Below, piece after piece: positions 21,385 to 64,000 of a DNA stretch of 64,000 bases. Origin of the DNA: Escherichia phage vB_EcoM_CUA3; the sequence record PP410321. The stretch is one strand, 5' to 3'. The notes beneath the pieces are model-generated. The model did not search any database and was not told the origin of the DNA. It saw nothing but the letters and a program-made list of their open reading frames with translations. Numbering within the stretch: the stretch's first letter is position 1; each line of letters begins with the position of its first letter. The position numbers and the translations under genes are program-made.

Positions 21385-23195
21385 TGAAACAAGAATTAAA
21401 AATAGGCCCCGCCGTTGATGATGGCTCCGGAGATTACCTGCGTGCAGGTGGTCTAAAAATCAATAATAACTTTAANGAGNNNNNNNNNNNNNNNNNNNNN
21501 NNNNNNNNNNNNNNNNNNNNNNNNNNNNNNNNNNNNNNNNNNNNNNNNNNNNNNNNNNNNNNNNNNNNNNNNNNNNNNNNNNNNNNNNNNNNNNNNNNNN
21601 NNNNNNNNNNNATTAACGTTCAGCTTCCTAAAGGCACCCCTTCAGAATATAACTTTGTAATTCGTTTGCGTGACGTTTATTCTTCTTGGCAAGCAAACCC
21701 TGTAACNNNNNNNNNNNNNNNNNNNNNNNNNNNNNNNNNNNNNNNNNNNNNNNNNNNNNNNNNNNNNNNNNNNNNNGACCTTGAACTTGTTTACTGTGCA
21801 CCGGGTCGCTGGGAATATGTCGAGAACAAACAAGTTAACCGTATTCCNAATAACGACCTAGCTACTGTAGCAACCAAACAGTTTATTGCTACNGAAGGCC
21901 AAACTGANNNNNNNNNNNNNNNNNNNNNNNNNNNNNNNNNNNNNNNNNNNNNNNNNNNNNNNNNNNNNNNNNNNNNNNNNNNNNNNNNNNNNNNNNNNNN
22001 NNNNNNNNNNNNNNNNNNNNNNNNNNNNNNNNNNNNNNNNNNNNNNNNNNNNNNNNNNNNNNNNNNNNNNNNNNNNNNNNNNNNNNNNNNNNNNNNNNNN
22101 NNNNNNNNNNNNNNNNNNNNNNNNNNNNNNNNNNNNNNNNNNNNNNNNNNNNNNNNNNNNNNNNNNNNNNNNNNNNNNNNNNNNNNNNNNNNNNNNNNNN
22201 NNNNNNNNNNNNNNNNNNNNNNNNNNNNNNNNNNNNNNNNNNNNNNNNNNNNNNNNNNNNNNNNNNNNNNNNNNNNNNNNNNNNNNNNNNNNNNNNNNNN
22301 NNNNNNNNNNNNNNNNNNNNNNNNNNNNNNNNNNNNNNNNNNNNNNNNNNNNNNNNNNNNNNNNNNNNNNNNNNNNNNNNNNNNNNNNNNNNNNNNNNNN
22401 NNNNNNNNNNNNNNNNNNNNNNNNNNNNNNNNNNNNNNNNNNNNNNNNNNNNNNNNNNNNNNNNNNNNNNNNNNNNNNNNNNNNNNNNNNNNNNNNNNNN
22501 NNNNNNNNNNNNNNNNNNNNNNNNNNNNNNNNNNNNNNNNNNNNNNNNNNNNNNNNNNNNNNNNNNNNNNNNNNNNNNNNNNNNNNNNNNNNNNNNNNNN
22601 NNNNNNNNNNNNNNNNNNNNNNNNNNNNNNNNNNNNNNNNGGCCAGGTTCGTATTACTGATGTGGATAATCCNNNNNNNNNNNNNNNNNNNNNNNNNNNN
22701 NNNNNNNNNNNNNNNNNNNNNNNNNNNNNNNNNNNNNNNNNNNNNNNNNNNNNNNNNNNNNNNNNNNNNGAGAACACAGTGAACCCTAATAACCCTGCAA
22801 CTTATATGGGNNNNNNNNNNNNNNNNNNNNNNNNNNNNNNNNNNNNNNNNNNNNNNNNNNNNNNNNNNNNNNNNNNNNNNNNNNNNNNNNNNNNNNNNNN
22901 NNNNNNNNNNNNNNNNNNNNNNNNNNNNNNNNNNNNNNNNNNNNNNNNNNNNNNNNNNNNNNNNNNNNNNNNNNNNNNNNNNNNNNNNNNNNNNNNNNNN
23001 NNNNNNNNNNNTGATGATAACNNNGGCCCTATTGTTATCGGTGGATGTTTGGTAGACCCGGATGCGCAAGGTCCTGCTTATACCAAATATCGTGAAGATA
23101 AAGCNNNNNNNNNNNNNNNNNNNNNNNNNNNNNNNNNNNNNNNNNNNNNNNNNNNNNNNNNNNNAACCGTTTATCGCTGGGTGAGGATTGCGTAA
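21384..23195 (+). CDS. 10: gp10 baseplate wedge subunit and tail pin
   Basis: 603 codons, matching T4 gp10 length; about 60 percent of the gene is N-masked. Confidence 0.7.
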   Translation: MKQELKIGPAVDDGSGDYLRAGGLKINNNFXEXXXXXXXXXXXXXXXXXXXXXXXXXXXXXXXXXXXXXXXXXXXXINVQLPKGTPSEYNFVIRLRDVYSSWQANPVXXXXXXXXXXXXXXXXXXXXXXXXDLELVYCAPGRWEYVENKQVNRIXNNDLATVATKQFIAXEGQTXXXXXXXXXXXXXXXXXXXXXXXXXXXXXXXXXXXXXXXXXXXXXXXXXXXXXXXXXXXXXXXXXXXXXXXXXXXXXXXXXXXXXXXXXXXXXXXXXXXXXXXXXXXXXXXXXXXXXXXXXXXXXXXXXXXXXXXXXXXXXXXXXXXXXXXXXXXXXXXXXXXXXXXXXXXXXXXXXXXXXXXXXXXXXXXXXXXXXXXXXXXXXXXXXXXXXXXXXXXXXXXXXXXXXXXXXXXXXXXXXXXXXGQVRITDVDNXXXXXXXXXXXXXXXXXXXXXXXXXXXXXXXXXENTVNPNNPATYMXXXXXXXXXXXXXXXXXXXXXXXXXXXXXXXXXXXXXXXXXXXXXXXXXXXXXXXXXXXXXXXXXXXXDDNXGPIVIGGCLVDPDAQGPAYTKYREDKXXXXXXXXXXXXXXXXXXXXXTVYRWVRIA

Positions 23196-45580: not shown

Positions 45581-47613
45581 AACAATTCTCTTGTNNNNNN
45601 NNNNNNNNNNNNNNNNNNNNNNNNNNNNNNNNNNNNNNNNNNNNNNNNNNNNNNNNNNNNNNNNNNNNNNNNNNNNNNNNNNNNNNNNNNNNNNNNNNNN
45701 NNNNNNNNNNNNNNNNNNNNNNNNNNNNNNNNNNNNNNNNNNNNNNNNNNNNNNNNNNNNNNNNNNNNNNNNNNNNNNNNNNNNNNNNNNNNNNNNNNNN
45801 NNNNNNNNNNNNNNNNNNNNNNNNNNNNNNNNNNNNNNNNNNNNNNNNNNNNNNNNNNNNNNNNNNNNNNNNNNNNNNNNNNNNNNNNNNNNNNNNNNNN
45901 NNNNNNNNNNNNNNNNNNNNNNNNNNNNNNNNNNNNNNNNNNNNNNNNNNNNNNNNNNNNNNNNNNNNNNNNNNNNNNNNNNNNNNNNNNNNNNNNNNNN
46001 NNNNNNNNNNNNNNNNNNNNNNNNNNNNNNNNNNNNNNNNNNNNNNNNNNNNNNNNNNNNNNNNNNNNNNNNNNNNNNNNNNNNNNNNNNNNNNNNNNNN
46101 NNNNNNNNNNNNNNNNNNNNNNNNNNNNNNNNNNNNNNNNNNNNNNNNNNNNNNNNNNNNNNNNNNNNNNNNNNNNNNNNNNNNNNNNNNNNNNNNNNNN
46201 NNNNNNNNNNNNNNNNNNNNNNNNNNNNNNNNNNNNNNNNNNNNNNNNNNNNNNNNNNNNNNNNNNNNNNNNNNNNNNNNNNNNNNNNNNNNNNNNNNNN
46301 NNNNNNNNNNNNNNNNNNNNNNNNNNNNNNNNNNNNNNNNNNNNNNNNNNNNNNNNNNNNNNNNNNNNNNNNNNNNNNNNNNNNNNNNNNNNNNNNNNNN
46401 NNNNNNNNNNNNNNNNNNNNNNNNNNNNNNNNNNNNNNNNNNNNNNNNNNNNNNNNNNNNNNNNNNNNNNNNNNNNNNNNNNNNNNNNNNNNNNNNNNNN
46501 NNNNNNNNNNNNNNNNNNNNNNNNNNNNNNNNNNNNNNNNNNNNNNNNNNNNNNNNNNNNNNNNNNNNNNNNNNNNNNNNNNNNNNNNNNNNNNNNNNNN
46601 NNNNNNNNNNNNNNNNNNNNNNNNNNNNNNNNNNNNNNNNNNNNNNNNNNNNNNNNNNNNNNNNNNNNNNNNNNNNNNNNNNNNNNNNNNNNNNNNNNNN
46701 NNNNNNNNNNNNNNNNNNNNNNNNNNNNNNNNNNNNNNNNNNNNNNNNNNNNNNNNNNNNNNNNNNNNNNNNNNNNNNNNNNNNNNNNNNNNNNNNNNNN
46801 NNNNNNNNNNNNNNNNNNNNNNNNNNNNNNNNNNNNNNNNNNNNNNNNNNNNNNNNNNNNNNNNNNNNNNNNNNNNNNNNNNNNNNNNNNNNNNNNNNNN
46901 NNNNNNNNNNNNNNNNNNNNNNNNNNNNNNNNNNNNNNNNNNNNNNNNNNNNNNNNNNNNNNNNNNNNNNNNNNNNNNNNNNNNNNNNNNNNNNNNNNNN
47001 NNNNNNNNNNNNNNNNNNNNNNNNNNNNNNNNNNNNNNNNNNNNNNNNNNNNNNNNNNNNNNNNNNNNNNNNNNNNNNNNNNNNNNNNNNNNNNNNNNNN
47101 NNNNNNNNNNNNNNNNNNNNNNNNNNNNNNNNNNNNNNNNNNNNNNNNNNNNNNNNNNNNNNNNNNNNNNNNNNNNNNNNNNNNNNNNNNNNNNNNNNNN
47201 NNNNNNNNNNNNNNNNNNNNNNNNNNNNNNNNNNNNNNNNNNNNNNNNNNNNNNNNNNNNNNNNNNNNNNNNNNNNNNNNNNNNNNNNNNNNNNNNNNNN
47301 NNNNNNNNNNNNNNNNNNNNNNNNNNNNNNNNNNNNNNNNNNNNNNNNNNNNNNNNNNNNNNNNNNNNNNNNNNNNNNNNNNNNNNNNNNNNNNNNNNNN
47401 NNNNNNNNNNNNNNNNNNNNNNNNNNNNNNNNNNNNNNNNNNNNNNNNNNNNNNNNNNNNNNNNNNNNNNNNNNNNNNNNNNNNNNNNNNNNNNNNNNNN
47501 NNNNNNNNNNNNNNNNNNNNNNNNNNNNNNNNNNNNNNNNNNNNNNNNNNNNNNNNNNNNNNNNNNNNNNNNNNNNNNNNNNNNNNNNNNNNNNNNNNNN
47601 NNNNNNNNNNNNN

Positions 47614-58568: not shown

Positions 58569-59521
58569 TGTATACTTTACAAGAATTTCAAAACCAGGCA
58601 ATTAATATTGACCTGCAGAGGAATAACCTGTTTAGTGTAGTATTTGCTACAGTTCCTTCTTCTAAATCTCAAGCGCTCCTCGACCAGTTCGGTGGAGCCT
58701 TATTTAATAATATTCCTTTAAATACAGATTTGTTTGGCATTACTCAAGGAGAGTTGACCCAAGGTGTTACGACATTAGTGACAGCGGGCACTCAGAAGTT
58801 GATTCGTAAGTCAGGCATAAGTAAATATCTGATTGGAGCTATGTCATCCAGGGTTGTGCAGAGCTTACTAGGAGAGTTTGAAGTAGGTACATATCTGATG
58901 GATTTTTTCAATATGGCCTATCCTACCGCAGGTCTTTTAGTCCATGCTGTTAAAATTCCAGATAATACCTTGAATTATGAAATGGATTTGAACCATAACT
59001 CGCCTAATATAAAAATTACTGGGAGAGAATATTCTCCATTGGTATTAAGCTTCCGTATGGATTCTGAAGCTGCCAACTACCGTGCTTTTAATGATTGGGT
59101 CAACAGTGTCCAAGACCCTATTACACAGTTAAGAGCATTACCGGAGGATGTTGAAGCTGACATCCAAGTCAACCTTCATTCTCGTAATGGATTGCCGCAT
59201 ACAGTAGTAATGCTTAATGGATGTGTTCCTGTAGGTGTTTCTTCGCCTGAATTATCTTATGATGGCGATAACCAAATTGCTTCGTTTGATGTTACATTTG
59301 CTTATAGAAGTGTACAGACAGGTGCAGTTGGTAAACAAGCCGCTTATGAATGGCTGGAAGATAAAGTCCTTAAAGGCGTAGCAGGCATAAGTGAGAGTAA
59401 CTCATTAAGTTCTTCTGTAGCTAAACTAAGCCGACTTTCAGGAGCTTCTAGTGGATTGACTGGATTGGTTAATACATTTGGTGGGCGTGCTATTAATAAT
59501 GGGGTATCGAGGTTGTTATAA
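58568..59521 (+). CDS. 54: gp54 baseplate tail tube initiator
   Basis: 317 aa (T4 gp54 320); synteny. Confidence 0.92.
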   Translation: MYTLQEFQNQAINIDLQRNNLFSVVFATVPSSKSQALLDQFGGALFNNIPLNTDLFGITQGELTQGVTTLVTAGTQKLIRKSGISKYLIGAMSSRVVQSLLGEFEVGTYLMDFFNMAYPTAGLLVHAVKIPDNTLNYEMDLNHNSPNIKITGREYSPLVLSFRMDSEAANYRAFNDWVNSVQDPITQLRALPEDVEADIQVNLHSRNGLPHTVVMLNGCVPVGVSSPELSYDGDNQIASFDVTFAYRSVQTGAVGKQAAYEWLEDKVLKGVAGISESNSLSSSVAKLSRLSGASSGLTGLVNTFGGRAINNGVSRLL

Positions 59522-59522
59522 C

Positions 59523-59550
59523 AAAAAAGGAGAGCGTATGCTCTCCTTTA
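59523..59550. terminator. terminator hairpin between convergent gene 54 and the minus-strand small ORF
   Basis: aggagagc-gtat-gctctcct 8-bp stem; A run upstream on plus gives a T run after the hairpin on the minus strand. Confidence 0.6.
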
Positions 59551-59555
59551 GGGGG

Positions 59556-59846
59556 TTATTTGCGGAACGAGATAAAACCTGCAGCGGTCATTAATGGCTG
59601 CTTTTTAACAAAGACCGTAATAGAAATAGGAGCTTCAGATTCAAGCTGACCGGTTACTACGCCATTAAAGATATTTTCGGTTTGTTCGGGTTGTGAAAAA
59701 TTTTCAACCGGACGTAAGTCGAACTGCTTGTCTTCACCGAAAACTCGACGTAATTCATTACCTACTGCACTGTCGAACTCTTCAGAAGCAGGGATAACGT
59801 TTTCAACTACCAACTCTTGACCATTAAAACGGAATGCAGATTTCAT
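59556..59846 (-). CDS. hypothetical protein (96 aa) downstream of alt
   Basis: ORF track; position corresponds to the small alt.-1/-2/-3 ORFs of T4, but no similarity established. Confidence 0.5.
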   Translation of the reverse strand: MKSAFRFNGQELVVENVIPASEEFDSAVGNELRRVFGEDKQFDLRPVENFSQPEQTENIFNGVVTGQLESEAPISITVFVKKQPLMTAAGFISFRK

Positions 59847-59903
59847 AATGTTCTCCTCATGTTTATGTAAGGTAATAGTACCACATCCTTGTTGTGATGT
59901 AAA

Positions 59904-62027
59904 CTACATTTTGAATTTATTTGATAAAGAAGAGATGTCCAAAGATGCAGCAAGGATTTCCATAGCCTCATTACTTTCTGAAACAGATTCTGAAATTAGG
60001 AATTCTTTAAACCCGTTCATCAATTTAACTTCACCGGTTTCCATCAAATGGTCACCATCGTAAACAGATTCACTGAGCTCTGAAGGAGACGTTACGGTAG
60101 CTTCCATAAGGTATTTGTGAGATACTCTATCGTTCATAGCAAAAGCCGCTACTTTATCAACCTTCAACAACAATCCACGCGGAAGGATAATTTCTGCTTC
60201 TTCGGCGTATTCTGTAAGGTCACCAGGAGCGATAACTTTAACTGCTTCAGCACCTCTAATAACCATACCAATTTCGGCAATTCTATCTGCAGGACCTTCA
60301 GGTGCAATTGGATTACCAAACTCGTCTTCTTCCCATTCTACCTCTTCGTCATCGACTTCACCCACATCAGATGAACTACCGCTGGTCAATTTAAACAACT
60401 CATCAGCAGAGGATAAAGAACCTTCACCACCAACAAAAACGGCTTGGTTGTCGAGGGCCATATAATTTTTACCGAATTCACCAAAGATGTTAGGCTTTAA
60501 TGAGGCTGATACAAAGTTCTTAAAGTAAAATGTTTTGTTATCGATATTATGACGCAGAATTTTGTATGGCAAATCCTGACCACGATACAAAATAGTACCC
60601 TTAGGAAGTTTAATACCCTTAGTAAATGCTGAGTCTAAATCCTTAATCAATCTAATAGCCGTTGTATTGTTTTCGGATTCAGGTTTACCTAAAAGGAATA
60701 AGTTCATAGGAGCATATTCGGCCGCACAATATTCAATAATGGCGTTACTTTCGTCTTTAGTCAAGCCCTTAGGTTTAATGAGCTCGCCTGAATAAGCATA
60801 CGCATCACCAATAGAATCGTTAATCAGTTTATAAACGGCTTCCATAGCGAAAGCAATTCGGGATGCTTTCTCTGAAGGAGTACCCTTAAAACGGGTGCTC
60901 AGGTTATTAACAATTTTCTTAATAATATCCAGACTATTGGTTGTATTGATTTGCGAAAGGCCGCTTAAAAGTCTATCGACTTCTGTATTAAAAAATGCCA
61001 TATTTTTAGAGTAAATTTCAAACCCTTGTTTATCTCTATTAGCATAGTTTAGTTTAAATTTACTATCGGTCATTAAAGCGTGCGTAAGAGCAATGGTGTA
61101 TCTAAAGTTGGCAAGGTCCTCACTCTTAGATTTAAACTGAGAGGCCTGACGCATTTTAGTAATAGCACCTTTTTTAAAGTTCTGGCTAATCTGTTCAATA
61201 CCTTCGTTCTCAGGGCCTTCGGCCGAGTGAACAGGGACAGAAGCTTCAAACTCGTTATAAACCTGCAATTCTTTAGGTGATAAAGTTTCAGGTTCAGCAG
61301 TAGAATACTGCGCTGCTGCAGCCATACGACGGGAAATCTTAGTACGAGAAATAACAGCCTTATCGGTACGTTTCTCTTCAACCTGTGCAATAGATGCTGC
61401 TACGGCTTCTACCTTACTTACGGCCTGGCCGGTTTTCTTAGAAACATAAACTTCACCGACTTTAGACTCAACCTTGGTATAAAGGTCCGCATCAATTTCA
61501 GGCATACCCTTGATATCTTCGATATTAGTGCCACGACGTGCTAAAAGAACGTATGTATGTTTACCACTAAACTGGAACATATCATCGACAACTTTAAACT
61601 TACCACCGGTACGTGCCATCGCCAAACGAGCTAATACACGCTGAACGGTAGGACCCTTACCTTTCATTTTCTTGGTAGGGAAACGGAACAGAACTGCGTC
61701 CATTTTAAGTTTATTTACTTGTTCATATATTGTATCGAAAATAGTATTCAATGCGCCAAGTGGGTCTGGACCAAGACCACCTTTGAGTTCAGCCGGAGCA
61801 CCCTTGCTCGATAAACTCATTAGAATAACGTGGACATATTTGTCGCCGGGCTTAACCATTTTAATAGCGTCTCCTTGAGACGCATAAGATACCATACGAG
61901 CAACCAGGTTATCATTACCTGGTGCTTGGATAGAGAAAATCTGTGGGATACCTGAGCCTGGCTTAAGATTTGTTACTGGATAGTTTTTAGCTGAATCACT
62001 ATCAAAAACTTCGTTTAAATTTTCCAT
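59904..62027 (-). CDS. alt: Alt-like ADP-ribosyltransferase, copy 1 (707 aa)
   Basis: Alignable with T4 Alt along its length as recalled; ART motifs visible: …TILYRGQDL…, …FYFKNFVSASL…, …EEAEIILPRG… (R, S-x-S and E-x-E). Confidence 0.9.
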   Translation of the reverse strand: MENLNEVFDSDSAKNYPVTNLKPGSGIPQIFSIQAPGNDNLVARMVSYASQGDAIKMVKPGDKYVHVILMSLSSKGAPAELKGGLGPDPLGALNTIFDTIYEQVNKLKMDAVLFRFPTKKMKGKGPTVQRVLARLAMARTGGKFKVVDDMFQFSGKHTYVLLARRGTNIEDIKGMPEIDADLYTKVESKVGEVYVSKKTGQAVSKVEAVAASIAQVEEKRTDKAVISRTKISRRMAAAAQYSTAEPETLSPKELQVYNEFEASVPVHSAEGPENEGIEQISQNFKKGAITKMRQASQFKSKSEDLANFRYTIALTHALMTDSKFKLNYANRDKQGFEIYSKNMAFFNTEVDRLLSGLSQINTTNSLDIIKKIVNNLSTRFKGTPSEKASRIAFAMEAVYKLINDSIGDAYAYSGELIKPKGLTKDESNAIIEYCAAEYAPMNLFLLGKPESENNTTAIRLIKDLDSAFTKGIKLPKGTILYRGQDLPYKILRHNIDNKTFYFKNFVSASLKPNIFGEFGKNYMALDNQAVFVGGEGSLSSADELFKLTSGSSSDVGEVDDEEVEWEEDEFGNPIAPEGPADRIAEIGMVIRGAEAVKVIAPGDLTEYAEEAEIILPRGLLLKVDKVAAFAMNDRVSHKYLMEATVTSPSELSESVYDGDHLMETGEVKLMNGFKEFLISESVSESNEAMEILAASLDISSLSNKFKM

Positions 62028-62030
62028 TAT

Positions 62031-64000
62031 TTACCCTTGGATGAATTTTTCTGGGATGTCATAGAGGTCTATGCATGAAGCCAAAAGAGGCAGTACGTCA
62101 AACCGTGTAGATTTAACAAATGAATCAAAAGATACAGGGCTTTCGGAAGTATCGAAGTCATCTTGATATACAACCAATTCACCGGTTTCCATTAGTACGT
62201 CACCATCATACACTACAGATTCTTGAAGCTCATCTGTCGTCATAACTTCAGCTTGAATGAGTTTTGTATTNNNNNNNNNNNNNNNNNNNNNNNNNNNNNN
62301 NNNNNNNNNNNNNNNNNNNNNNNNNNNNNNNNNNNNNNNNNNNNNNNNNNNNNNNNNNNNNNNNNNNNNNNNNNNNNNNNNNNNNNNNNNNNNNNNNNNN
62401 NNNNNNNNNNNNNNNNNNNNNNNNNNNNNNNNNNNNNNNNNNNNNNNNNNNNNNNNNNNNNNNNNNNNNNNNNNNNNNNNNNNNNNNNNNNNNNNNNNNN
62501 NNNNNNNNNNNNNNNNNNNNNNNNNNNNNNNNNNNTCTAAAAGACCTACACCGGCATGGGTAACACCAAAACGACCGAAAATAATAGGGGTCAGTGAAGT
62601 TGATACAAAGTTTCTAAAATAGAATACTTTATTTTTNNNNNNNNNNNNNNNNNNNNNNNNNGTCATACTCTGTGCACGATAAACTGTGATGCCTTCAGGT
62701 AATCTATCGCCGTTTTCAAAAGCAGAATCCAAATTATTAACTGCAGATTCGATATCTTTTTCGCTCATAACTTCATAGTTCTGAGGATTATATCGTCCTA
62801 AAAGAAGGTTATTGATATCGNNNNNNNNNNNNNNNNNNNNNNNNNNNNNNNNNNNNNNNNNNNNNNNNNNNNNNNNNNNNNNNNNNNNNNNNANAGTAAT
62901 ATCAACCATAATACCGCCACCTACACCAGCAAAACTATAAACACGTTTTTTAATGAACTTGGTCTTAGCGGCTTTCCACTTAGACTCGGTCAATTCGTTC
63001 CAGAGGTCGTCAGGTTGACCTTTACGAGTTTTGTTATGCTTAGCCAGCCATTCGCCTTTATATTCTTCAAAAACTGTATTAATAACAGAGGCATATTTTT
63101 CTAGAGCTTTAACAGATGTCAAAGGTTCGTTTTTGATGGCTGTAAGGATTTTCTCTTTAATTTTCTCTTGGATTTCACCTATACCGTGAAGAGGAAACAT
63201 TTTATAATCGTAATGCAACTCTTCAGCAGTGCCTTCAGCTACTATATTAGCAACCTTATTTTTAGCCGCAGGAGAATTGTTATTAGTAACCATTTCTTGG
63301 GCATCAGGGATTAATGGAGCTGTTGCCGGTTTATTAAAATCAGCGGCAGTGGCTTCATATTTCTTAAACAGTTCGCTTTCATTACGATAGGATTCTAAAG
63401 ACTGGCTTGCCGCAATAGCACGTCGAGAAATCTTAGTCTTGGTTATAACCATTTTATCGGTGCGACGTTCTTCAACTTTAGCAATACTGCCGGCAATAGC
63501 AGTTTCTTTAGTAACCTGCACGCCTTCTTTTTTAGAAATATAAACTTCACCGACATCAGAATCTACCTTAGTGTATAATTCGGAATTAATTCCAGGCATA
63601 CCTTTGATATCTTCGATATCAGCTTGTTTACGGACTACCAGGATGTAAGTATGTTTACCGGTAAATTGGTACATAGCCGGAACCACTTTAAAACGTCCAC
63701 CGGTTTTCTGCGCTACCAAACGTTGGATAATACGTTGAACGATAGGGCCTTGACCTTTCATTTTCTTAGTAGGGAAACGGAACATCACGGCATCCATACG
63801 AAGCTTTTTAACTTGTTCGAATACTACGTCGAAAATGGTATTGATAGCATCAATAGGAGTAGGGCCTAAGCCACCTTTGAGTTCAGCCGGAGAACCTTTA
63901 GCTGAAAGGCTCATAAGGATAACGTGGGCGTATTTATCACCTAATTTAACCTGTTTAATAGCATCGCCTTCAGAGGCATAAGATACCATACGAGCCACCA
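62031..64000 (-). CDS. Alt-like ADP-ribosyltransferase, copy 2 (N-terminus beyond window end; internal N runs)
   Basis: Parallel to copy 1 (…VARMVSYASEGDAIKQVK…, …GITVYRAQSM…, …FYFRNFVSTSL…, C-terminus …ASCIDLYDIPEKFIQG like T4 Alt); stops 3 nt before the copy 1 ATG. Confidence 0.85.
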   Translation of the reverse strand, partial: VARMVSYASEGDAIKQVKLGDKYAHVILMSLSAKGSPAELKGGLGPTPIDAINTIFDVVFEQVKKLRMDAVMFRFPTKKMKGQGPIVQRIIQRLVAQKTGGRFKVVPAMYQFTGKHTYILVVRKQADIEDIKGMPGINSELYTKVDSDVGEVYISKKEGVQVTKETAIAGSIAKVEERRTDKMVITKTKISRRAIAASQSLESYRNESELFKKYEATAADFNKPATAPLIPDAQEMVTNNNSPAAKNKVANIVAEGTAEELHYDYKMFPLHGIGEIQEKIKEKILTAIKNEPLTSVKALEKYASVINTVFEEYKGEWLAKHNKTRKGQPDDLWNELTESKWKAAKTKFIKKRVYSFAGVGGGIMVDITXXXXXXXXXXXXXXXXXXXXXXXXXDINNLLLGRYNPQNYEVMSEKDIESAVNNLDSAFENGDRLPEGITVYRAQSMXXXXXXXXXKNKVFYFRNFVSTSLTPIIFGRFGVTHAGVGLLXXXXXXXXXXXXXXXXXXXXXXXXXXXXXXXXXXXXXXXXXXXXXXXXXXXXXXXXXXXXXXXXXXXXXXXXXXXXXXXXXXXXXXXXXNTKLIQAEVMTTDELQESVVYDGDVLMETGELVVYQDDFDTSESPVSFDSFVKSTRFDVLPLLASCIDLYDIPEKFIQG

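Follow-up and report, generated by a model that had tools for sequence, protein, structure and literature searches.

The ADP-ribosyltransferase (ART) Alt of phage T4 has as its main target Arg265 of one RNA polymerase alpha subunit (PMC2988021; T4 Alt biology is also treated in PMC9503650). It is cut by the gp21 prohead protease at ITE-6 and LTE-619, and the C-terminal propeptide cut at the second site is 63 amino acids (aa) long (PMC5694885). Paralogues of alt have been described in RB49 and 44RR, together with the small genes alt.-1/alt.-2 of T4 (Nolan et al. 2006, PMC1524935), and Alt duplication has been reported in JS98, Bp7, and Acinetobacter phage Ac42, with three Alt-like genes in ZZ1 (Jin et al. 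2014, PMC4177764). Here we analyze two tandem alt genes at the end of a 64,000-nucleotide (nt) stretch of Escherichia phage vB_EcoM_CUA3 (record PP410321; the whole stretch is referred to as the window). A preliminary description of this DNA implied that the arrangement was new, but it is already known, as the JS98 pair was annotated in 2007 and the duplication is present in the literature.

Identity and genomic context of the alt pair

The minus strand of the last 4.1 kb of the window consists of two long open reading frames (ORFs) lying head to tail. The downstream gene, copy 1 (59904..62027, minus strand), encodes 707 aa plus a stop and is an altB-type Alt ADP-ribosyltransferase gene. The upstream gene, copy 2 (62031..64000 and running beyond 64000, minus strand), is a partial altA-type gene in the position of JS98 alta. 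The 3-nt spacer and head-to-tail minus-strand layout given in the preliminary description are borne out by the sequence TAA-ATA-ATG at 62033..62025. Its statement that both genes are full-length Alt homologues holds for the homology but not for the length of copy 2, which runs past the window end, with 115 nt absent and 363 masked bases (N).

Copy 1 matched PHROG 802 (“Alt-like RNA polymerase ADP-ribosyltransferase”) over aa 1-707 (E = 8e-251) and Pfam PF03496 (E = 8e-17), and the CLB_P2 orthologue of copy 2 matched PHROG 802 with E = 6e-258. Precomputed assignments placed both PF03496 and PF26846 in all 120 of 120 homologues among those listed, and alignments showed collinear homology to T4 Alt over the full length. 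The genomic position is also that of the T4 Alt family: alt.-3, gp54, gp48, and gp29 are all present in the window on the downstream side of the pair, with alt.-3 and gene 54 as the immediate flank, and the upstream flank of gene 30/alt.1 is seen in relatives.

The window is 95 to 96% identical at the nt level to JS98, MN04, and CLB_P2, which share its gene order gp29-gp48-gp54 / alt.-3-altb-alta. Copy 1 itself is 95 to 96% identical to MN04, JS98, dhaeg, and JS10, all of which are Dhakavirus, i.e., JS98-like T4-type coliphages. In the JS98 GenBank record, altb is the downstream gene (copy 1) and alta the upstream gene (copy 2), flanked by alt.1/gene 30 and by alt.-3/genes 54-48-29, and in MN04 both genes are annotated as “NAD(+)--arginine ADP-ribosyltransferase.” The initial identification of the two genes as Alt-type ART paralogues agrees with these annotations: the upstream gene, of which the window holds only a part, is altA of a JS98-like Dhakavirus and the downstream gene is its altB, both paralogues of T4 alt.

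Modular divergence and selection

BLASTP gave an overall identity of 39% between the two copies, which the preliminary description called diverged throughout. Their divergence is instead modular and nonuniform. The N-terminal module of copy 1 (aa 1-245; 61293..62027, minus strand), which carries the L-N-E motif discussed below, is 69% identical to its copy 2 counterpart over aa 42-245, and the all-helical middle region (aa 246-420; 60768..61292, minus strand) is only 11% identical; identity is 40% in the readable ART part and 40% in the C-terminal part. The N-terminal module was modeled as an alpha/beta fold (predicted local distance difference test score [pLDDT], 86) with no significant match among solved structures. 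It gave no Pfam match at E ≤ 10 (JSE gave a chance-level match only), none by PDB profile, and no significant Foldseek match, and we did not assign it to the GNAT (acyl-CoA N-acyltransferase) fold.

The ratio of nonsynonymous to synonymous substitution (dN/dS) was 0.04 to 0.07 for copy 1 against close relatives, 0.02 to 0.05 for its ART domain, and 0.036 for the readable part of copy 2. These values point to strong purifying selection on both copies, which behave as functional genes and give no indication of fast adaptive change within a type.

Catalytic motifs and predicted fold

Copy 1 contains the motifs LYRGQ, VSASL, and EEAEIILPRG, which supply R482, S507-A-S509, and E610-A-E612 (Y-R-G at 60576..60590, S-A-S at 60498..60512, and E-A-E at 60174..60203 in the translated minus strand). 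In the readable sequence of copy 2, Y-R-A (VYRAQ; 62670..62684, minus strand) and S-T-S (VSTSL; 62592..62606, minus strand) are found. This motif reading confirms an earlier claim that both copies keep the arginine and S-x-S, that copy 1 keeps EAE, and that the E-x-E of copy 2 is masked. In an alignment of 73 homologues, S507, E610, and E612 were invariant, and R482 and S509 were conserved in at least 90%. Among R-S-E ARTs, E-x-E instead of Q-x-E implies arginine specificity.

A search of PDB sequences with copy 1 as a single sequence gave no match at E ≤ 0.01, and the Alt family profile was required; with it, Y-R and E-x-E aligned with BECa, and C3, Certhrax, VIP2, CdtA, and iota toxin were also matched. 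The AlphaFold model of copy 1 (pLDDT, 77.7; pTM, 0.71) matched Vis (E = 4e-8), C3, Certhrax, and VIP2 in a Foldseek search of the PDB, with TMt values of 0.6 to 0.7 (0.60 to 0.66 for C3bot). Copy 1 is therefore modeled with a C3/VIP2-like R-S-E ART fold in which the catalytic residues are aligned.

The ART domain of copy 1 (aa 421-653; 60069..60767, minus strand) holds the three motifs and an acidic insert, and L-S-E653 stands at its end. The segment from S-x-S to E-x-E is 114 aa long in copy 1, 93 in the copy 2 type, and 82 in T4. The insert (approximately aa 533-582) is disordered, modeled with low confidence, and strongly acidic, with 16 D/E and 2 K/R in 50 aa. The loop preceding E-x-E reads TEYAEEAE in AltB and GIATEAE in the AltA type; in C3-like enzymes, this loop contributes to substrate choice.

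Predicted processing and proposed role

Both ends of copy 1 carry motifs of the gp21 type. L-N-E at aa 4-6 (62010..62018, minus strand) aligns with ITE-6 of T4, LSE-653 aligns with LTE-619, and both E6 and E653 are invariant in the 73 homologues. The last 54 aa (59907..60068, minus strand) align with the C-terminal propeptide of T4 Alt and are a predicted propeptide, and the predicted mature AltB has 647 aa and a mass of 71.1 kDa. In copy 2, E-L-Q-E-S (62217..62231, minus strand) supplies a C-terminal gp21-type motif (LQE) that is followed by 62 residues. A check for a gp21 site near the N-terminus, proposed in the preliminary description for both copies, thus gave LNE-6 in copy 1, while the N-terminus of copy 2 lies outside the window and its relatives carry LNE-7. 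At the motif level, the [L/I]-x-E prohead-protease signature of the T4 Alt family is therefore present. By homology with T4 Alt, both copies are probably carried in the head and injected.

We consider it probable that a single explanation covers the altA/altB identity together with T4-Alt-like packaging, processing, injection, and ADP-ribosylation and probably differing targets. Expressed from the late unit described below, each precursor of ~78 kDa would enter the prohead core, where the gp21 protease would trim the first 6 to 7 residues (after L-N-E) and the last 54 to 62 (after L-S-E or L-Q-E), leaving AltB as a 647-aa, 71-kDa enzyme. The mature enzymes would be ejected with the DNA and would mono-ADP-ribosylate arginines of host proteins in an NAD+-dependent reaction at a C3/VIP2-type R-S-ExE site. 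With a shared N-terminal module, unrelated helical middles, and differently decorated ART domains, we hypothesize that AltA and AltB act on different sets of host proteins. Distinct host targets are plausible: the two middles show no relationship, E-x-E is preceded by different loops, and an acidic insert is present in copy 1. If the targets of the paralogues do differ, the textbook account, in which Alt acts on a single RNA polymerase alpha subunit, describes no more than a part of the injected activity of T-even phages. The question of what AltB-type enzymes modify appears not yet to have been asked.

Several points weigh against this explanation. The difference in target sets is something we infer, and T4 Alt alone modifies many proteins, so that there could be extensive overlap between the two copies. 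For the Dhakavirus Alt proteins, homology to T4 Alt is the basis on which packaging, cleavage, injection, and enzymatic activity are predicted, and our searches of the literature turned up no virion proteomics for a phage with two alt genes. The E-x-E and the N-terminus of copy 2 are unreadable in the window, and no identical genome was found with which to unmask them. Finally, the promoter assignment depends on relatives and on a late-promoter motif with one mismatch.

Tandem alt genes across T-even phages

With the N-terminal module as the query, tblastn matched 1201 phage records at 1737 places. When these were sampled at even intervals, two alt places occurred in 20 of the 24 T4-genus-like rows (grouped by ~42 to 45% identity to the query); most sampled Tequatroviruses apparently carry two alt copies. 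T6 has two full tandem alt genes separated by a 3-nt gap, as in the window; we found no discussion of the second T6 alt in our literature searches.

Between the alt stop and alt.-3, T4 has 424 nt (L003:5034-5457) that hold alt.-1/alt.-2. When this stretch is compared with the T6 downstream-alt stretch (L007:4872-6995), its first 353 nt match the initial 354 nt of T6 at 96% identity, and its final 80 nt match the T6 end at 94%. Since both ends match T6, alt.-1/alt.-2 of T4 are the relic of an AltB-class gene after a deletion of ~1.7 kb. In the T4 record itself, alt.-1/alt.-2 is described as duplicating the first part of alt, and in the T6 record the wording is “insertion in alt.-2.” T4, the model for Alt biology, is therefore atypical in having lost a second alt that is kept by T6 and apparently by most of its sampled relatives.

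Longer arrays also occur, and some Dhakaviruses have three copies. In phage fDHCT2 (L006:3825-10085), three alt genes lie in tandem, joined by 3-nt junctions that are identical. The middle gene is a third cassette type with an AltB-like N-terminus (89%) and with only 16 to 21% (middle) and 32 to 46% (ART) identity to the window copies. A 684-aa alt homologue of Bp7 is 48% identical to copy 1, and its length is near that of fDHCT2 alt_2 (681 aa). By its length, it may be of the same cassette type.

Mosaic structure of the alt locus

Trees of the separate modules gave different groupings. In the N-terminal tree, the copies cluster by genus. In the trees of the middle, ART, and C-terminal parts, they cluster by cassette class, with copy 1 beside the T6 downstream gene and copy 2 beside the T6 upstream gene. 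We also observed that both ends of alt (~240 aa at the N-terminus and ~60 aa at the C-terminus) follow genus and that the type of the middle and ART cassette spans genera. Along the gene, nt identity between T4 alt and T6 upstream alt is 97 to 99% for ~720 nt, 39 to 72% for the next ~1 kb, and 81 to 99% for the last ~270 nt, and copy 2 compared with JS98 alta changes from 87 to 96% to 40 to 78% and then to 83 to 100%. Between copy 2 and T6, the ART part is 82 to 93% identical at the nt level and the N-terminal parts are 36 to 64% identical. These breaks are too sharp for rate differences and indicate that the middle and ART cassette has been replaced by recombination, also between genera. In a limited search, we did not find this mosaic structure of alt described in the searchable literature.

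These patterns bear on the suggestion of an arms-race duplication made in the preliminary description, which does not fit an old and widespread duplication (T6, 44RR, and Acinetobacter phages), the dN/dS of 0.04 to 0.07, and the exchange of whole cassettes. An arms race through rapid substitution is rejected by the same dN/dS values; alt diversity arises via whole-cassette exchange and not via fast point substitution.

One further reading builds directly on the mosaic. The alt locus may be a polymorphic array of injected effectors in which the conserved N-terminal module and the C-terminal propeptide serve as recombination handles, middle and ART cassettes are swapped between T-even genera, and some of the products target host defense proteins instead of RNA polymerase. 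The sharp breakpoints in T4 alt versus T6 upstream alt and in copy 2 versus JS98 alta are in its favor, as are the closeness of the copy 2 ART part to T6 despite dissimilar N-terminal parts and the occurrence of one, two, or three copies per array with identical junctions. On the other hand, mosaicism is general in T4-like genomes, and anti-defense targets are speculative apart from MazF, which T4 Alt modifies. We regard this reading as an appreciable possibility, though not the favored one; it extends the explanation proposed above and does not contradict it. A more specific form, held somewhat more tentatively, would see alt as a modular injected-effector locus in which the genus-specific N-terminal ~240 aa (packaging/ejection) and the C-terminal propeptide act as homology arms, unrelated cassettes of helical middle and ART are swapped across T-even genera in arrays of one to three, and each phage injects its own ART mix with differing host targets, possibly defense proteins among them. 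Of all this, the mosaic pattern itself is what we observed directly. For the engineering of head-packaged cargo, the mosaic would in addition provide natural points at which cassettes could be swapped.

Possible redundancy or loss of activity

Alternatively, the two copies might be redundant, with the same main target (RNA polymerase alpha Arg265) and a second gene that adds injected dose or robustness. Both copies share the same arginine-type R-S-ExE site and the N-terminal module, and T4 and RB69 get by on one copy. However, the middle regions are unrelated, and the AltB class is a separate lineage across genera: the identity of copy 1 with the T6 downstream copy reaches 48% in the middle and 56% in the ART part, versus 10 to 14% and 36 to 37% with the upstream types. 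In addition, two cassette classes have been kept long-term at a dN/dS of ~0.05, which argues for nonidentical roles. We think redundancy unlikely, compared with paralogues that probably differ in their targets.

One copy might instead be enzymatically dead and purely an internal head protein, with a structural or DNA-packing role; in favor of this, the E-x-E of copy 2 cannot be read in the window. Copy 2 has 363 N among 1970 bases, in three masks of 72+1, 25, and 265 N, and the reading frame is unbroken through all of them. Runs of N are spread over the whole window (~100 runs of 1 to 2019 nt, e.g., 45595-47613 and 21908-22640), so the masking is general and the alt genes are not singled out. 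In register with five relatives, the first 115 nt of copy 2 (38 codons plus 1 nt) lie beyond position 64000, and the full gene is therefore expected to have 2085 nt and to encode a predicted 694 aa.

The E-x-E is expected within the 265-nt, in-frame run at 62271..62535 (minus strand). The length of this mask equals that of the matching stretch in fDHCT2 alt_3, IME341, IME281, and QL01, all four of which read TEAEVILPRG there, and is 24 nt longer than that in CLB_P2, to which the readable blocks of copy 2 are 96.5 to 99% identical at the nt level. More generally, TEAE[V/I]ILPRG stands at the masked site in six of six same-type relatives (these five and T6 upstream). An exact 41-mer adjoining the mask had no match in IMG/VR, and an exact look-up of the copy 1 protein found no record; the closest IMG/VR relatives are 96 to 98% identical at the aa level, and the closest protein cluster is 98% identical (JS10).

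Two further points would suit a dead copy: T4 alt mutants have been reported to package more DNA, so Alt takes up head volume (PMC3012670), and the annotated Alt frame of RB69, as deposited, is without the R and S-T-S motifs. Given all three motifs in copy 1, the TEAE motif in all six same-type relatives of copy 2, the invariance of E610 and E612 in the homologues, and an ART-domain dN/dS as low as elsewhere, we consider this reading very improbable. The tandem layout alone could suggest an assembly or duplication artefact, but this is ruled out for practical purposes by the 39% identity of the copies, which marks a real, old paralogue pair, and by the presence of the same pair in more than 40 independently sequenced phages.

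Junction, proposed transcription unit, and alt.-3

At the junction CAAGGGTAAATAATG (62028..62041, minus strand), the last codons and stop of copy 2 are followed by the 3-nt spacer and the start of copy 1, and an AAGGG Shine-Dalgarno-like element lies within the end of copy 2. The form CAAGG(G/A)TAAAT(A/G/C)ATGGAA is conserved between the window, JS98, T6, T4 alt/alt.-1, and the two junctions of fDHCT2. This conservation is consistent with translational coupling of altB to altA, which would operate through the AAGGG-TAA-ATA-ATG junction.

The gene directly downstream of copy 1 is alt.-3 (59556..59846, minus strand), which encodes 96 aa with a DUF5498 domain (PF17602, E = 4e-34), is annotated as alt.-3 in JS98 and T4, and is the last gene of the minus-strand alt unit. 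In T4, C-terminal extension mutants of Alt.-3 evade the CmdTAC defense because they prevent the degradation of CmdA (PMC11618068). Where alt.-3 and gene 54 converge, an intrinsic terminator-like hairpin with a T-run (59526..59549, minus strand) lies between them.

The T4 late-promoter motif TATAAATA was not found in 59500-64000. Across the whole window it occurs 17 times versus 6.3 expected, mostly on the plus strand at 27821-49692, a cluster that is consistent with a block of late structural genes. In T4, a hairpin and then TATAAATA stand upstream of alt, and this hairpin recurs, with CATAAATA, ahead of the upstream alt copy of CLB_P2. The lack of an internal TATAAATA, the promoter-like motif upstream in relatives, the hairpin after alt.-3, and the conserved junction suggest that altA, altB, and alt.-3 form one late unit with translational coupling. 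They would be cotranscribed late from a promoter just upstream of altA, outside the window, with the transcript ending at the hairpin.

Comparison with known systems

The closest described systems are alta/altb of JS98 and their counterparts in other Dhakaviruses (JS10, IME08, MN04, CLB_P2, and dhaeg), which have the same two genes in the same order, with the same 3-nt junction and flanks. The altb genes of JS98 and JS10 are 95 to 96% identical to copy 1 at the nt level and 98% at the aa level. JS98 alta is 97 to 100% identical to copy 2 at the aa level in its N- and C-terminal parts, but its middle and ART parts are of another cassette type (34% and 66% aa identity); the copy 2 cassette is instead of the CLB_P2 / fDHCT2 alt_3 / IME341 / T6 type, with 91 to 100% aa identity in the readable part.

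T4 Alt (NP_049811), the characterized NAD+:arginine ADP-ribosyltransferase that is packaged in the head and injected, is collinear with the window copies over its full length. It shares with them the genomic position, the gp21 motifs of its two ends, and the R / S-T-S / E-x-E motifs; in copy 2 the E-x-E is masked. It is 32 to 33% identical to copy 1 overall (42%, 14%, and 37% in the N-terminal, middle, and ART parts) and 47%, 34%, and 63% identical to copy 2 in the same three parts. Unlike the window, T4 has a single intact alt, its second copy having been cut down to alt.-1/alt.-2 by the ~1.7-kb deletion and a frameshift.

T6 (MH550421) has a tandem pair with the same junction as the window, made up of alt and a full-length gene named “alt.-2.” Outside Dhakavirus, its downstream copy is the gene nearest to copy 1 over the middle (48%), ART (56%), and C-terminal (60%) parts, and the ART cassette of its upstream copy is 91% identical to copy 2 at the aa level and 82 to 93% at the nt level. 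In contrast, the N-terminal modules are genus bound, with 42 to 47% identity between genera and 69% between the two copies of the window. In RB69 (AY303349, L008:3384-5471), where the annotated alt frame is without the Arg and S-T-S motifs, “TLYRAQ...FYFRNYVSTS” is found in another frame over ~60 codons (nt ~1430-1600). This suggests two compensating frameshifts, which reflect either faulty sequencing behind an old record or a genuine lesion.

The ModA and ModB proteins of T4 are likewise phage R-S-E ARTs and act on host transcription and translation proteins. Unlike Alt, they are small (~200 aa), early, and not packaged. An hhalign comparison of ModB with the Alt alignment gave only one 18-column match around E-x-E, with a probability of 0.2% and E = 0.27, and ModA was not compared; ModB, at least, does not appear to be a close relative of Alt.

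The wider clade of R-S-ExE mono-ADP-ribosyltransferases that includes C3, VIP2, iota, Certhrax, and Vis has the ART fold, the catalytic Arg, S-x-S, and E-x-E in common with Alt, at 12 to 19% sequence identity, and the segment between S-x-S and E-x-E is far longer and variable in Alt. Unlike C3/VIP2-type toxins, Alt has an N-terminal extension of ~420 aa and a cleaved C-terminal propeptide, and it is delivered by the phage head and not by secretion.

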